Assembly (NCBI GenBank): GCA_000004985.1
Contig: GG739143.1
Reading direction: 5' to 3' (one strand)
Origin: Naegleria gruberi
Taxonomy: Eukaryota
Length of the DNA stretch: 7,371 nt
The notes under the pieces are model-generated. The model did not search any database. It was not told the DNA's origin and saw only the letters and a program-made list of their open reading frames with translations. Each line of letters begins with the position of its first letter. The first letter of the stretch is position 1. Shown piece after piece: positions 1,793 to 7,371 of the stretch. Position numbers and translations under genes: made by a program.

Positions 1793-2410
1793 TTATCTCT
1801 CAGTTTTCATAAAGAAAAATATATAAAACAAAATGATAATCCTAAGTTTTTGAACAATCTCCCATTCTGCTTGATTTTCAACACTATTGAATTGGGTAGA
1901 TGGTGTAGAAAGATCCATACACAATCTCCAAATACAAGTCAAACATCTTTGCAAGACGTGGTAATGTTGCTTGGTCATTCTTGTTCTGATTGGTTGATTA
2001 TTTGTTACTGGGAGTGGGCTGTTTCTATCGCTACCAGAACTAGTACCGAAAGGATTGGATGAACCTACAGATGGTGGAGCACTATTAGGTCCGTTATTAA
2101 CTTGGTAAATGGATTGAATGGTACTGATTGGTTGGTATAATTGCAAAATGGAAATCATTAATTTGTAAACGTGTATTCTGTAAACATAATTCCAAATAAG
2201 TTTCAATCTTTCGCAACCAGTATTTCTATTCAAATTATTATTAATCAAAACATCACACAATAAATCCAAACAGAAGAGGGAAGTATCTAAGTCTCTTTCA
2301 TAATAGTAATAGGTTGAGGTAGTTGCATTTTGTTGTTTGGTTGTTTTCAATGTGAACAAGTGAGGAGCAGAATGAATGTGCCAATTAAAAAATGCAAGAC
2401 GATAAATCAT
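1793..2410 (-). CDS. Hypothetical protein of about 205 aa from the ATG at 2410-2408. The ORF is open to 2452 but that codon is TTG. It is tentatively Mediator Med7-like.
   Basis: A 219-codon open frame sits in a region where the plus strand is full of stops. The central region uses strongly yeast-preferred codons (gct cca cca tct gta ggt tca tcc ... aga). The protein has an S/P/N/G-rich low-complexity middle. The motif pair LDLLCDVLI ... ERLKLIWNYVYRIH, with spacing of about 22 residues, resembles the Med7 core LDLLDILI ... EDLKLLFVHVHHL. Total size matches Med7 (about 220 aa). The last 17 codons (LRIIILFYIFFFMKTER) are encoded by the inverted repeat and AT-rich DNA, so the native C-terminus may have been replaced. 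Confidence 0.5.
   Translation of the reverse strand: MIYRLAFFNWHIHSAPHLFTLKTTKQQNATTSTYYYYERDLDTSLFCLDLLCDVLINNNLNRNTGCERLKLIWNYVYRIHVYKLMISILQLYQPISTIQSIYQVNNGPNSAPPSVGSSNPFGTSSGSDRNSPLPVTNNQPIRTRMTKQHYHVLQRCLTCIWRLCMDLSTPSTQFNSVENQAEWEIVQKLRIIILFYIFFFMKTER
1828..1846. repeat. Right copy of the perfect 19-bp inverted repeat (acaaaatgataatcctaag).
   Basis: This is the exact reverse complement of 236-254. It lies in the last 17 codons of the minus-strand ORF 1793-2452, where coding-like codon usage gives way to AT-rich sequence. Confidence 0.9.
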
Positions 2411-2494
2411 CAATTCCCGAAGTTGTTGTTGATGATGAAGAAACAAATCCAACTATTCCAGGACATGAATCCATCATTGAACAAAATCCTTCTT
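2392..2494 (+). CDS. Possible 5' end of a plus-strand gene (MQDDKSSIPEVVVDDEETNPTIPGHESIIEQNPS...) that runs into the assembly gap.
   Basis: The ATG sits in an aaaaaATGc context. All 34 visible codons are yeast-preferred (gaa gtt gat cca att tca caa), giving an acidic N-terminus. It overlaps the 5' end of the minus-strand ORF 1793-2410/2452, so at most one of the two start assignments is correct. Confidence 0.25.
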
Positions 2495-5400
2495 NNNNNN
2501 NNNNNNNNNNNNNNNNNNNNNNNNNNNNNNNNNNNNNNNNNNNNNNNNNNNNNNNNNNNNNNNNNNNNNNNNNNNNNNNNNNNNNNNNNNNNNNNNNNNN
2601 NNNNNNNNNNNNNNNNNNNNNNNNNNNNNNNNNNNNNNNNNNNNNNNNNNNNNNNNNNNNNNNNNNNNNNNNNNNNNNNNNNNNNNNNNNNNNNNNNNNN
2701 NNNNNNNNNNNNNNNNNNNNNNNNNNNNNNNNNNNNNNNNNNNNNNNNNNNNNNNNNNNNNNNNNNNNNNNNNNNNNNNNNNNNNNNNNNNNNNNNNNNN
2801 NNNNNNNNNNNNNNNNNNNNNNNNNNNNNNNNNNNNNNNNNNNNNNNNNNNNNNNNNNNNNNNNNNNNNNNNNNNNNNNNNNNNNNNNNNNNNNNNNNNN
2901 NNNNNNNNNNNNNNNNNNNNNNNNNNNNNNNNNNNNNNNNNNNNNNNNNNNNNNNNNNNNNNNNNNNNNNNNNNNNNNNNNNNNNNNNNNNNNNNNNNNN
3001 NNNNNNNNNNNNNNNNNNNNNNNNNNNNNNNNNNNNNNNNNNNNNNNNNNNNNNNNNNNNNNNNNNNNNNNNNNNNNNNNNNNNNNNNNNNNNNNNNNNN
3101 NNNNNNNNNNNNNNNNNNNNNNNNNNNNNNNNNNNNNNNNNNNNNNNNNNNNNNNNNNNNNNNNNNNNNNNNNNNNNNNNNNNNNNNNNNNNNNNNNNNN
3201 NNNNNNNNNNNNNNNNNNNNNNNNNNNNNNNNNNNNNNNNNNNNNNNNNNNNNNNNNNNNNNNNNNNNNNNNNNNNNNNNNNNNNNNNNNNNNNNNNNNN
3301 NNNNNNNNNNNNNNNNNNNNNNNNNNNNNNNNNNNNNNNNNNNNNNNNNNNNNNNNNNNNNNNNNNNNNNNNNNNNNNNNNNNNNNNNNNNNNNNNNNNN
3401 NNNNNNNNNNNNNNNNNNNNNNNNNNNNNNNNNNNNNNNNNNNNNNNNNNNNNNNNNNNNNNNNNNNNNNNNNNNNNNNNNNNNNNNNNNNNNNNNNNNN
3501 NNNNNNNNNNNNNNNNNNNNNNNNNNNNNNNNNNNNNNNNNNNNNNNNNNNNNNNNNNNNNNNNNNNNNNNNNNNNNNNNNNNNNNNNNNNNNNNNNNNN
3601 NNNNNNNNNNNNNNNNNNNNNNNNNNNNNNNNNNNNNNNNNNNNNNNNNNNNNNNNNNNNNNNNNNNNNNNNNNNNNNNNNNNNNNNNNNNNNNNNNNNN
3701 NNNNNNNNNNNNNNNNNNNNNNNNNNNNNNNNNNNNNNNNNNNNNNNNNNNNNNNNNNNNNNNNNNNNNNNNNNNNNNNNNNNNNNNNNNNNNNNNNNNN
3801 NNNNNNNNNNNNNNNNNNNNNNNNNNNNNNNNNNNNNNNNNNNNNNNNNNNNNNNNNNNNNNNNNNNNNNNNNNNNNNNNNNNNNNNNNNNNNNNNNNNN
3901 NNNNNNNNNNNNNNNNNNNNNNNNNNNNNNNNNNNNNNNNNNNNNNNNNNNNNNNNNNNNNNNNNNNNNNNNNNNNNNNNNNNNNNNNNNNNNNNNNNNN
4001 NNNNNNNNNNNNNNNNNNNNNNNNNNNNNNNNNNNNNNNNNNNNNNNNNNNNNNNNNNNNNNNNNNNNNNNNNNNNNNNNNNNNNNNNNNNNNNNNNNNN
4101 NNNNNNNNNNNNNNNNNNNNNNNNNNNNNNNNNNNNNNNNNNNNNNNNNNNNNNNNNNNNNNNNNNNNNNNNNNNNNNNNNNNNNNNNNNNNNNNNNNNN
4201 NNNNNNNNNNNNNNNNNNNNNNNNNNNNNNNNNNNNNNNNNNNNNNNNNNNNNNNNNNNNNNNNNNNNNNNNNNNNNNNNNNNNNNNNNNNNNNNNNNNN
4301 NNNNNNNNNNNNNNNNNNNNNNNNNNNNNNNNNNNNNNNNNNNNNNNNNNNNNNNNNNNNNNNNNNNNNNNNNNNNNNNNNNNNNNNNNNNNNNNNNNNN
4401 NNNNNNNNNNNNNNNNNNNNNNNNNNNNNNNNNNNNNNNNNNNNNNNNNNNNNNNNNNNNNNNNNNNNNNNNNNNNNNNNNNNNNNNNNNNNNNNNNNNN
4501 NNNNNNNNNNNNNNNNNNNNNNNNNNNNNNNNNNNNNNNNNNNNNNNNNNNNNNNNNNNNNNNNNNNNNNNNNNNNNNNNNNNNNNNNNNNNNNNNNNNN
4601 NNNNNNNNNNNNNNNNNNNNNNNNNNNNNNNNNNNNNNNNNNNNNNNNNNNNNNNNNNNNNNNNNNNNNNNNNNNNNNNNNNNNNNNNNNNNNNNNNNNN
4701 NNNNNNNNNNNNNNNNNNNNNNNNNNNNNNNNNNNNNNNNNNNNNNNNNNNNNNNNNNNNNNNNNNNNNNNNNNNNNNNNNNNNNNNNNNNNNNNNNNNN
4801 NNNNNNNNNNNNNNNNNNNNNNNNNNNNNNNNNNNNNNNNNNNNNNNNNNNNNNNNNNNNNNNNNNNNNNNNNNNNNNNNNNNNNNNNNNNNNNNNNNNN
4901 NNNNNNNNNNNNNNNNNNNNNNNNNNNNNNNNNNNNNNNNNNNNNNNNNNNNNNNNNNNNNNNNNNNNNNNNNNNNNNNNNNNNNNNNNNNNNNNNNNNN
5001 NNNNNNNNNNNNNNNNNNNNNNNNNNNNNNNNNNNNNNNNNNNNNNNNNNNNNNNNNNNNNNNNNNNNNNNNNNNNNNNNNNNNNNNNNNNNNNNNNNNN
5101 NNNNNNNNNNNNNNNNNNNNNNNNNNNNNNNNNNNNNNNNNNNNNNNNNNNNNNNNNNNNNNNNNNNNNNNNNNNNNNNNNNNNNNNNNNNNNNNNNNNN
5201 NNNNNNNNNNNNNNNNNNNNNNNNNNNNNNNNNNNNNNNNNNNNNNNNNNNNNNNNNNNNNNNNNNNNNNNNNNNNNNNNNNNNNNNNNNNNNNNNNNNN
5301 NNNNNNNNNNNNNNNNNNNNNNNNNNNNNNNNNNNNNNNNNNNNNNNNNNNNNNNNNNNNNNNNNNNNNNNNNNNNNNNNNNNNNNNNNNNNNNNNNNNN

Positions 5401-5507
5401 NNNNNNNNNNNNNNNNNNNNNNNNNNNNNNNNNNNNNNNNNNNNNNNNNNNNNNNNNNNNNNNNNNNNNNNNNNNNNNNNNNNNNNNNNNNNNNNNNNNN
5501 NNNNNNN
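2495..5507. other. Assembly gap of 3,013 N. Its true size is unknown.
   Basis: It is an uninterrupted run of N. The long ORFs reported across it are artefacts of N being translated as X. Confidence 0.99.
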
Positions 5508-6192
5508 CAAATTCTAATTTAATGTTATTCATGAGAAGAGATGCAACAAATAGCTCTATTTCATCATTAGGAATAACTTTGACAAAATCTGTAATGAACG
5601 AGTAGTATGTTTGGTCACTTGGGCAAATAGTAGAGTAAAACGAAAGATTTTTCATTGATTCCATAACAAGTTCCTGTCTACGCACGATCGTTTTTGCAAA
5701 ATAAGAGAGATAGAGTTGAGATAAACCTTCAATCCAGTATCTTTCATTTTCAAAGTATTCGATATCAAATTGTTGCTTCATATTATTGGCAACATCGCCA
5801 CCATCAATATTTCTAAAAGTATTAAAAACACTCTTCAGTTCATTCCAAATATTGTCGTTCTTGGGACTATTCTCCAATATTGTTGAATAGATTTCGTAAT
5901 TGTGCATTATTTGTGTGTTTCGTTCTCCCTTAATGTTCTTGATGGACATTGAAAAAAACACCAAAGCAAGAGCCTCCCTTAGTCTTTGTTTTTGAAATAA
6001 TGCAAATGATTGTTCATTCACTCTCTGTTCAAATGTTACACTGCTCTGAAGAAACTCTGTATGTAATGCGAGAGTAGGATGTTCAATAATGCACTGACAT
6101 ATTATTAAGGCAGTTTGATCATCTGTGTTATCAACGGCATTTTCGGCCTGTACAGAGTAATCCTTAATATGTAATGATACTCTTTCTGACAT
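5508..6192 (-). CDS. N-terminal 228 codons of a large unidentified protein, which continues into the gap.
   Basis: The 685-nt frame is open from ATG 6192-6190, in a caacaaaaaaaATGtc context, to the gap edge. Yeast-like codon usage and a normal amino-acid composition argue against a chance ORF in roughly 33% GC DNA. I could find no recognisable family motif. Confidence 0.7.
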
Positions 6193-6592
6193 TTTTTTTG
6201 TTGCAATTGTATTAATTTCTCAGAAATGAGTAGTAGCCTCCTAAGAGATGATTTCAGTCCTCTCACATATACTTTATACTATCCAGAGTTTCATCTACTC
6301 ACCAGTCCTCAATTTTCTATTACACAGAAATTGTTAAGAGTTTAATAAGTAAATGTTTTGGTATAGAAAACCTTCCATCAATATCAAGACTACAATGATC
6401 ACCACTCGTAGAACCTTAGGAAGTTCAATTCTATTAAGGAGTGATATAATTTGTGTGTCCAGAATCCATGGTGTTTGGAGGTTTGGATCAATTTCTAAAT
6501 TTACTACTTTCTAAAAATATTACACAACTTGTGAATTAATTTTCAATCAATCTGAAACAAATTCAAAAATACTAAAAAAAAACAAACAATAT
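6193..6592. promoter_or_regulatory. Divergent intergenic or promoter region shared by the minus-strand large gene and the plus-strand eIF4A-like gene.
   Basis: A 400-bp non-coding stretch lies between two divergently oriented ATGs. It contains TATA-like stretches (gatataattt near 6444; tatactttatact near 6268) and an A-rich leader before 6593. Confidence 0.4.
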
Positions 6593-7363
6593 ATGAATAG
6601 TTTCGATAATTTATTGTTGACAGATGATCTCTTGAGAGGAATATATGGCTATGGTTTTGAAACCATGAGTTCTATCCAACAAGAAATATTAAATCCACAA
6701 CAACAACAAACACAACCATCACAACAACAACCATCAAACAGTTCAATGATCGTTCAAGGTCGATCAGGAGAGGGCAAAACCATTGGATTAATTATTAAAG
6801 TATTGAAAACAGTTGATTTTCAAAAGGATGATGATGATAATGGTGTAGAATTGCAAGGTTTAATTCTTGTTCCGAATGAATATTTAGGAAAACAAATAAC
6901 CAAAGCCATGATTTACTTGGGTGAATATATTAGAAATGCAACAATTTCTGATAATGTGAATGAAAATCCGAGAATTCTCATAACCACTCCATCAATAGTC
7001 ATTGAAAAGAAGATTAATGTATCCAAATTGAAAATTCTAGCATGTGATGAAATGAATGTCATGTTACAAATTGGATCACCAACTAGAAGATGTATTAAGA
7101 GAATTTTACAACAAATTCCAAACGAAACTGAAATTATTTGTGTTGGTTCAAGTAAATTGCCACCAGAATGTTATATACATGATCAGCATTTGAAACATTC
7201 ACGTATCATTCAACAAGATAGTGAATTGGGAAGAAATATTTCTGAAAGTTTTGTTTATTGTCCAAAATTGGAGCAAAAACTTGCAACATTGAAGGAACGT
7301 GTCAACACTACTTTTCCATCCAATGTAATATTTTGTAATAATTCTAAAAACAAGGAGAAATAG
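6593..7363 (+). CDS. eIF4A-family DEAD-box paralogue with degenerate catalytic motifs, either a pseudo-helicase or a decaying copy. It ends at an in-frame TAG inside the expected RecA2 domain.
   Basis: [20 protein letters not shown] (4-23) is nearly identical to the eIF4A Q-motif region ([20 protein letters not shown]). The P-loop is GRSGEGKT (6758-6781) rather than AQSGTGKT. Motif Ia is PNEYLG (6872-6889) rather than PTRELA. Motif Ib is TTPSIV rather than GTPGRV. Motif II is DEMN (7046-7057) rather than DEAD. Motif III is GSS (7145-7153) rather than SAT. The C-terminal [14 protein letters not shown] aligns to eIF4A TQAVIFCNTRRKVE. The frame is intact for 256 codons and the A-rich start context is good. 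Confidence 0.75.
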   Translation: [256 protein letters not shown]

Positions 7364-7371
7364 AAGAGATT

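Follow-up and report, generated by a model that had tools for sequence, protein, structure and literature searches.

The roles of the motifs that define DEAD-box proteins have reportedly been set out by Linder and Jankowsky in 2011 and by Putnam and Jankowsky in 2013. Motifs Q, I, II and VI serve ATP, motifs Ia, Ib, Ic, IV, IVa and V serve RNA, and motifs III and Va serve the coupling of the two activities (PMC9539457). Utp25/Def, a pseudohelicase of the small-subunit (SSU) processome, has been termed by the authors of that work the first fully validated DEAD-box pseudohelicase (PMC9539457). An eIF4A-like gene of the heterolobosean amoeba Naegleria gruberi invites comparison with both patterns. 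It lies on the plus strand at positions 6593..7363 of a 7371-bp scaffold (contig GG739143.1 of assembly GCA_000004985.1), the whole of which was analyzed and is here termed the window. To judge by its sequence, the gene is a real, selected and lineage-restricted variant of the DEAD-box/eIF4A kind, in which the motifs of the ATP pocket are kept and the lost motifs are the ones that contact RNA or couple ATPase activity to unwinding. Its family has so far been found only in Naegleriidae, to which both Naegleria and Willaertia belong, with four genes in N. gruberi, one in Naegleria lovaniensis and one in Willaertia magna.

Conserved and degenerate motifs

Motifs were compared in a 12-sequence alignment of the family with a canonical eIF4A-like set, in a 62-sequence alignment, and in a per-motif table. 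Residue numbers are those of the N. gruberi gene model NAEGRDRAFT_62154 (P0002), a longer version of the protein encoded in the window. By these alignments, the nucleotide pocket is conserved throughout the family: the Phe and Gln of the Q motif, GxGKT, the Asp-Glu pair of motif II and RxGRxxR. Six of its residues (Q29, G59, G61, K62, T63 and D152) are invariant in the 62 sequences, E153 is invariant in the 12-sequence alignment and nearly so in the larger one, and R318, G320 and R321 of motif VI are nearly invariant.

The Q-motif region (6602..6679, plus strand, as are all motifs given here) comprises the aromatic F4, the stretch [11 protein letters not shown] (residues 13-23, 6629-6661) and GFETMSSIQ, which ends at Q29. 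Residues for adenine recognition are retained, with Q29 invariant in the family and in canonical eIF4A, and position 4 always F or Y (Y in one member). The eIF4A-specific N-terminal signature LLRGIYxYGFE is present. Motif I, or Walker A, reads GEGKT within GRSGEGKT (residues 59-63, 6767..6781); its GxGKT core is intact, the Glu that replaces S/T before the second Gly occurs in this paralogue only and at a variable Walker A position, and the leading Ala of AxxGxGKT is also substituted. Motif II is DEMN in place of DEAD (residues 152-155, 7046..7057), so that the Walker B pair D-E is retained and the A and final D are replaced; across the family, it reads DEMN or DEMD. The first RecA2 strand carries motif IV as VIFCN (residues 245-249, 7325..7339), with F247, C248 and N249 nearly invariant (F-C-N reads Q-D in N. 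lovaniensis). Farther on, the G-I-D of motif V is retained in the family, and motif VI (R318-x-G320-R321-x-x-R324) reads I-R-T-G-R-S-G-R here versus H-R-I-G-R-S-G-R in canonical proteins and xRSGRCxR in the other members. Blocks specific to the family, YLPSTLEELDF among them, are conserved as well.

The motifs that appear lost form the complementary set. Motif Ia is PNEYLG instead of PTRELA (residues 94-99, 6872..6889), an exchange of the Arg that contacts the RNA backbone for Glu; the same position is E or D in all Naegleria members and I in Willaertia. The GG loop ahead of motif Ib is deleted, and motif Ib itself reads TTPS for TPGR (6983..6994). Motif III is GSS in place of SAT (residues 185-187, 7145..7153), and GLR, GTR, GCE, GSN or GKL in other members. 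The QxxR of motif IVa is absent. Motif V is WYGID (in HDDWYGID) versus ARGID, its Arg surviving only in Willaertia (RGID), and the His of motif VI has given way to a hydrophobic residue (Ile in this gene) and is missing from all members. In the motif table, Ia, GG, Ib, III, QxxR and V are lost in every Naegleria member. An earlier examination of the same DNA, here called the sequence-only reading, had already noticed the degenerate motifs, and the losses in Ia, Ib, III, V and elsewhere bear it out; its statement that every ATP motif is substituted was mistaken, as G59, G61, K62, T63, D152, E153 and Q29 are retained.

The loss extends to profile scores for the second lobe. Against Pfam Helicase_C (PF00271), P0002 scores 12 bits and a second full-length paralogue (P0157) 21 bits, both under the cut-off of 23.5, whereas the Willaertia (52 bits) and N. 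lovaniensis (39 bits) members pass. This difference suggests that RecA2 diverged progressively within N. gruberi. One further feature is found in this paralogue only, a low-complexity insert rich in Gln, Ser and Pro, [18 protein letters not shown], that separates the Q motif from motif I (residues 34-51, 6692..6745) and is modeled at a lower predicted local distance difference test score (pLDDT) of 70-80.

The AlphaFold2 model of P0002, built from the 62-sequence alignment, has two alpha/beta RecA lobes at a pLDDT of 87 and a predicted template modeling (TM) score of 0.85. It is weak in two places. One is residues 264-283, where the motif IVa helix is expected and where eIF4A is longer by about 15 residues; the other is the C-terminal 25 residues (350-375), which are nevertheless conserved among full-length Naegleria members. 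The best Foldseek matches are closed-state structures, eIF4A-III in the exon junction complex (EJC) and eIF4A-I with adenylyl imidodiphosphate (AMPPNP) and RNA (2hyi_C and 5zc9_A), at a TM score of 0.77; open-state structures reach only about 0.45.

The confident two-lobe prediction and the complete nucleotide pocket, with its catalytic Glu and the arginines of motif VI, could also belong to an active RNA-dependent ATPase or helicase that evolves fast and whose RNA surface has been remodeled past recognition. The passing Helicase_C scores in Willaertia and N. lovaniensis and the RGID of Willaertia motif V favor such an enzyme. It is nonetheless an unlikely explanation, given that the acidic replacement in Ia, the deletion of GG and the loss of SAT argue against a working helicase; the Naegleria members further lack the Gly-Arg of Ib, QxxR and the motif V Arg, and the Helicase_C score of the gene itself is far below the cut-off. 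SAT and the motif VI His are gone from all members, and mutagenesis of eIF4A-type proteins links both to coupling and hydrolysis.

Gene extent, family and ancestry

The frame in the window runs from ATG to TAG over 256 codons and contains RecA1 and the first strand of RecA2. It had been correctly delimited by the sequence-only reading, and the strings quoted there, [11 protein letters not shown] included, are all present in it. The setting in budding yeast assumed by that reading proved wrong: the protein is identical to the N. gruberi gene model NAEGRDRAFT_76775 (P0001, 256 residues), which is annotated on the 7371-bp scaffold, and an origin in budding yeast was rejected on this ground.

Nor are 256 residues the full extent of the protein. 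NAEGRDRAFT_62154, a second N. gruberi model on a scaffold of 941,567 bp, is 375 residues long and 100% identical to NAEGRDRAFT_76775 across all 256. Beyond residue 256, it goes on as ...[15 protein letters not shown]..., and since its last 119 residues align as homologues of the paralogues, the long frame would be the functional one. The RecA2 domain that the sequence-only reading had proposed to look for beyond the window is present in it, with positions for motifs IV, V and VI and with QxxR absent. The difference between the two copies was deduced from the P0002 protein sequence and the reading frames of the window. At the frameshift site (7358..7371, plus strand), the window reads AAA TAG AAG AGA TT, so that the codon of K256 is followed by TAG AAG AGA TT. 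When shifted by one base, the last nine nucleotides (7363-7371) encode EEI, which are residues 258-260 of P0002; residues 256-260 of the long protein are KLEEI, and the window has just two bases, TA, for Leu257. The long copy must therefore read AAA (T/C)TA GAA GAG ATT (K-L-E-E-I). Because EEI follows in the next frame and only TA is left for Leu257, the change is a one-base loss relative to the long scaffold, for which an intron cannot account; as deduced, the base is absent 10 nucleotides before the scaffold end, and its absence creates the TAG at 7361-7363. The frame in the window thus represents, on this evidence, the first 256 codons of a 375-codon N. gruberi gene, shortened by a one-base indel that may be either a sequencing error near the end of a read or a true allelic difference, and NAEGRDRAFT_76775 is best corrected in the record as a truncated duplicate or allele of NAEGRDRAFT_62154 on a small scaffold.

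A profile of the N. gruberi copies was searched against 1.84 billion representative proteins. Above 145 bits, only Naegleria and Willaertia proteins were found; below this score come ordinary DEAD-box proteins, the first of which, at 129.5 bits, is a duplicated model of canonical eIF4A, and which continue without a break from 118 bits downward. Against a set of 5.8 billion clusters, a five-member profile likewise dropped from 284 bits for the family to 190 bits for canonical eIF4A. The four N. gruberi genes (NAEGRDRAFT_62154, 46148, 71451 and 73388) are on four different scaffolds, and two of their models are truncated (P0004 and P0010); P0157, of 389 residues, is the full-length counterpart of P0010/NAEGRDRAFT_73388. 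The Willaertia magna member, ABK040_013017, came from the profile search. The N. lovaniensis member, C9374_004346 (P0011, 1132 residues), holds the family part in residues 704-1131. Because the degenerate pattern is common to the four N. gruberi paralogues and to both other species, it appears to be old.

Two further observations concern the family members themselves. In N. lovaniensis P0011, the family part makes up the C-terminal ~430 residues, and the N-terminal part carries a glycoside hydrolase family 5 (GH5) cellulase-like domain (Pfam PF00150, 27.5 bits) and a hydrophobic stretch that, by eye, resembles a signal peptide; most likely, two adjacent genes have been merged into one model. 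Contigs of another Naegleria strain in a metagenome (ENA ERZ929261, run ERR1078381) carry two paralogues as intronless, near-identical copies: L001 (1268-2437), L002 (1601-2719) and L003 (83-1201). In that strain, P0158 differs from its N. gruberi counterpart at 1 of 372 residues and P0157 at 3 of 286.

A homologue search with the C-terminal 429 residues of the N. lovaniensis protein returned ordinary DEAD-box proteins only. This search is word-indexed and missed even the parent P0011, so that the lack of matches there from N. fowleri or other heteroloboseans is not evidence of absence. The literature was searched for the gene and protein identifiers, for Naegleria eIF4A, and for Naegleria differentiation, transcriptome and helicase, and no description of the family was found; with no such paper, the family appears to be undescribed. 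Database names of its members are all automatic, such as "predicted protein" and "ATP-dependent RNA helicase," and the latter name is probably misleading for this gene.

The nearest clade to this family seems to be eIF4A, by a ranking of bit scores against solved structures in the PDB, and descent from an eIF4A-I/III type of minimal DEAD-box protein is the origin that these scores indicate. The window frame matches Pfam DEAD (PF00270) at 47.3 bits (E 2.4e-12; cut-off 26) and P0002 at 48.2 bits. Among structures, the window frame matches eIF4A-III (65 bits, E 5.8e-17) and eIF4A-I (56 bits) best. As a single sequence, P0002 gives 82 bits for eIF4A-III, 69 for eIF4A-I and 59 for yeast eIF4A, followed by Dbp5 (49), Sub2 (47) and Dhh1 (46). 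The family profile yields 172 bits for eIF4A-I, 165 for eIF4A-III and 156 for yeast eIF4A, versus 139 for DDX19 and 137 each for Dbp5 and DDX6, a lead of approximately 26-35 bits. The sequence-only reading was therefore right to call the gene eIF4A-derived. Its wish to place the protein relative to TIF1/TIF2, FAL1 and DHH1 is answered in part: eIF4A outranks Dbp5, Dhh1 and DDX6 by bits, and the parent lineage may be either eIF4A-I or eIF4A-III, as the single sequence favors III and the profile favors I. The affinity to eIF4A may also be a long-branch artifact, a pull toward the minimal helicase that is most conserved.

Identity to canonical eIF4A sequences is 23-29%, and all canonical eIF4A matches retain DEAD, SAT and PTRELA. 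As the protein has departed from its relatives in DEAD, SAT, Ia, Ib, V and Helicase_C, it is not filed as an eIF4A orthologue, and a one-to-one relationship to eIF4A-I or eIF4A-III is not indicated by its sequence. For N. gruberi, a separate canonical eIF4A, XP_002676412, is the one listed, and eIF4AIII was reported in all species surveyed (PMC5862402). With canonical eIF4A and eIF4AIII already present, the family members are extra paralogues.

Selection was gauged by the Nei-Gojobori method, in which the window frame was compared with the two paralogues for which DNA was available (L001 and L002). The proportions of differing sites were 0.30-0.37 for nonsynonymous (pN) and 0.51-0.64 for synonymous (pS) sites, and the ratio of nonsynonymous to synonymous divergence (dN/dS) was 0.35-0.46, values that are upper bounds only. 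Open frames are kept in six genes from three species, and residues of the nucleotide pocket are invariant despite an overall identity of ~30-50% among paralogues. Together, the intact frames, the invariant pocket, the conserved blocks and a dN/dS below 0.5 indicate purifying selection on the family rather than a set of pseudogenes, with a constraint that is clearly looser than on canonical eIF4A. The claim of the sequence-only reading that the gene is kept under selection is thereby supported, also because the degeneracy is common to paralogues and orthologues.

Three facts could be taken to mean that the gene is a decaying pseudogene or an artifact of annotation or assembly, without function: the window copy ends at a premature TAG, its 7.4-kb scaffold holds a gap of 3013 N, and two of the four N. 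gruberi models are truncated. The first of these comes down to a single base, 10 nucleotides short of the scaffold end, and on the larger scaffold the frame is complete; for one of the truncated models, P0010, a full-length version exists. With A and T each at 0.35 in the window, stops should occur once per 12.7 codons, and a run of 256 open codons would arise by chance with a probability of 7.5e-10, which agrees with the view of the sequence-only reading that openness in such AT-rich DNA is not random. With the dN/dS and the open frames and shared blocks of six genes in three species also against it, this explanation is very improbable and can be regarded as largely refuted. The sequence-only reading would have turned to a recent pseudogene or artifact had orthologues shown intact motifs; the two other species share DEMN or DEMD and lack SAT, and neither best matches outside the eIF4A clade nor a dN/dS near 1 was found.

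Proposed function and surrounding scaffold

The reading preferred here, at a probability of roughly 55%, is that the protein is an ATP-binding, RNA-blind derivative of eIF4A that acts as a nucleotide-dependent protein-binding switch or adaptor. As the conserved pocket suggests, the protein would still bind ATP, possibly with slow hydrolysis, and its two lobes would close. The loss of motifs suggests that RNA would no longer be clamped or unwound in the canonical way. Instead of serving as a helicase, the protein would then bind other proteins in a nucleotide-dependent manner, possibly the partners of eIF4A-type proteins. The sequence-only reading had pictured a catalytically dead pseudo-helicase with a non-enzymatic role; the loss of residues for RNA and coupling fits that picture, the kept nucleotide pocket does not, and an RNA-blind ATP binder seems a better description than an inert protein.

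Several points weigh against this proposal. ATP binding is inferred from conserved residues alone. Canonical DEAD-box proteins bind ATP and RNA cooperatively, so that a protein deprived of its RNA site might bind ATP less productively as well. Nor does the closed pose of the model speak for ATP binding, as it may simply carry over from an alignment made up largely of canonical helicases. RNA may still have been contacted by the ancestor, and perhaps is by some present-day members, since Willaertia keeps the motif V Arg and passes Helicase_C at 52 bits. With regard to selection, the dN/dS values of 0.35-0.46 are bounds rather than estimates because synonymous sites are near saturation. Finally, the genomic neighbors of the window gene and of its paralogues gave no functional hint.

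The many degenerate motifs could also belong to an inert pseudo-helicase of the sort that the sequence-only reading proposed, a scaffold or decoy that mimics eIF4A toward proteins with MIF4G or MA3 domains and does so independently of nucleotide. Utp25/Def provides a precedent for a DEAD-box fold with dispensable motifs (PMC9539457). The retained LLRGIYxYGFE signature is compatible with such mimicry, and the tail at 350-375, conserved in full-length Naegleria members and predicted with low confidence, looks as an interaction peptide might. The conserved pocket argues against the inert protein, which gives no reason for GxGKT, D-E, the Gln of the Q motif and RxGRxxR to be invariant across paralogues of ~30-50% identity and three species; moreover, Utp25 has the reverse pattern, with motifs I and II gone and Ia kept. 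D270 and D273 of eIF4A-III form an acidic pair that we take to be needed for CWC22 binding, and the aligned positions are E and N here and, by eye, do not seem conserved in the paralogues. On balance, a nucleotide-independent scaffold is improbable, about as much so as the active helicase.

If the ATP-binding, RNA-blind switch is accepted, a broader and more speculative history can be proposed, which is rather doubtful as a whole, if slightly less so than the active enzyme or the inert scaffold. A private family of the Naegleriidae would have turned from RNA clamps into ATP-gated protein-binding switches, with the nucleotide pocket kept and the RNA groove made acidic or deleted, and would then have multiplied in N. 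gruberi to four copies at dispersed sites. These proteins might regulate or decoy partners of eIF4A; conceivable settings are the control of translation as amoebae differentiate into flagellates and defense against eIF4A-targeting viruses.

The rest of the scaffold and the gene neighborhoods can be described briefly. A 400-bp spacer (6193..6592) in the open reading frame (ORF) map separates the eIF4A-like gene from a long divergent ORF on the minus strand (2410..6192) and is presumed to contain a shared promoter region. The long ORF is broken by a run of 3013 N (2495-5507), either a scaffold gap or masking, and its readable N-terminus of 228 residues has no match in Pfam or the PDB. A 219-codon open segment on the minus strand (1796-2452), possibly the C-terminal part of the long divergent gene, has no match in the PDB and a TFIIH C1-like match in Pfam that is below threshold (22.3 bits versus a cut-off of 28.9). 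At the start of the scaffold, a 72-codon open segment on the minus strand (21-236; [36 protein letters not shown]...KW) corresponds to residues ~206-262 of eukaryotic elongation factor 2 (EF2; 63.6 bits, E 1.4e-16). It is flanked by stops, with no N-terminal part of EF2 seen upstream on the minus strand, and represents a gene fragment or else a single exon of an EF2-like gene that continues past the scaffold start. The neighbors of the paralogues on the metagenome contigs encode DUF4116 and SPRY proteins.

Comparison with known systems

The best relatives of P0002 in sequence and structure are eIF4A-I and eIF4A-III (DDX2 and DDX48; Tif1/2 and Fal1 in yeast). Like them, the protein belongs to a minimal size class (375 versus ~400 residues) and has no accessory domains, and it shares LLRGIYxYGFE...Q, the VIFCN strand, GxGKT, D-E, GID and RxGRxGR. 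Unlike them, it has DEMN for DEAD, GSS for SAT, PNEYLG for PTRELA, TTPS for TPGR, WYGID for ARGID and Ile for the His of motif VI, and it has neither the GG loop nor QxxR. Measured against DEAD-box proteins in general, it has the PF00270 match, motif I and the Q motif, and departs in D-E-A-D, S-A-T, Ia, GG, Ib, IVa, V and PF00271. Divergent DEAD-box paralogues do not seem to be rare in protists; a pattern in which the ATP pocket appears to be kept and the RNA groove lost is unusual.

A functional analogy may be drawn to eIF4A-III in the EJC, an ATP-bound clamp with inhibited hydrolysis, which resembles the proposed switch as a static nucleotide-dependent platform. However, the EJC clamp relies on intact RNA-binding motifs, which are missing in the Naegleria gene. 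If the inference drawn here is true, the family would be a natural separation of function within the DEAD-box core, with the ATP pocket kept and the RNA groove erased, and could reveal the activity left to an eIF4A-type ATP switch once RNA is out of play. Naegleria, whose species include the pathogen N. fowleri, would also gain post-transcriptional regulators specific to its lineage.

Utp25/Def and the Naegleria family have in common a DEAD-box fold of two RecA lobes, found for P0002 with AlphaFold2 and Foldseek, along with degenerate motifs and a selected role without unwinding (PMC9539457), which for the Naegleria proteins remains a proposal. Specific homology between the two does not go beyond the superfamily. 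Yeast Utp25 has ~720 residues, of which ~160 at the N-terminus are disordered (PMC9539457), whereas the Naegleria family is minimal and lineage-restricted. Utp25 is also without DEAD and further helicase motifs, while Ia is kept and Q, IV, V and VI survive in part (PMC9539457). By sequence, the absent or dispensable ATP motifs of a pseudohelicase are not found in the Naegleria family, in which Walker A and B, the Gln of the Q motif and the arginines of motif VI are conserved; its pattern is the reverse of that of Utp25, with ATP motifs kept and RNA motifs lost. Should the ATP-gated switch prove correct, the family would have taken the opposite route to a pseudoenzyme.

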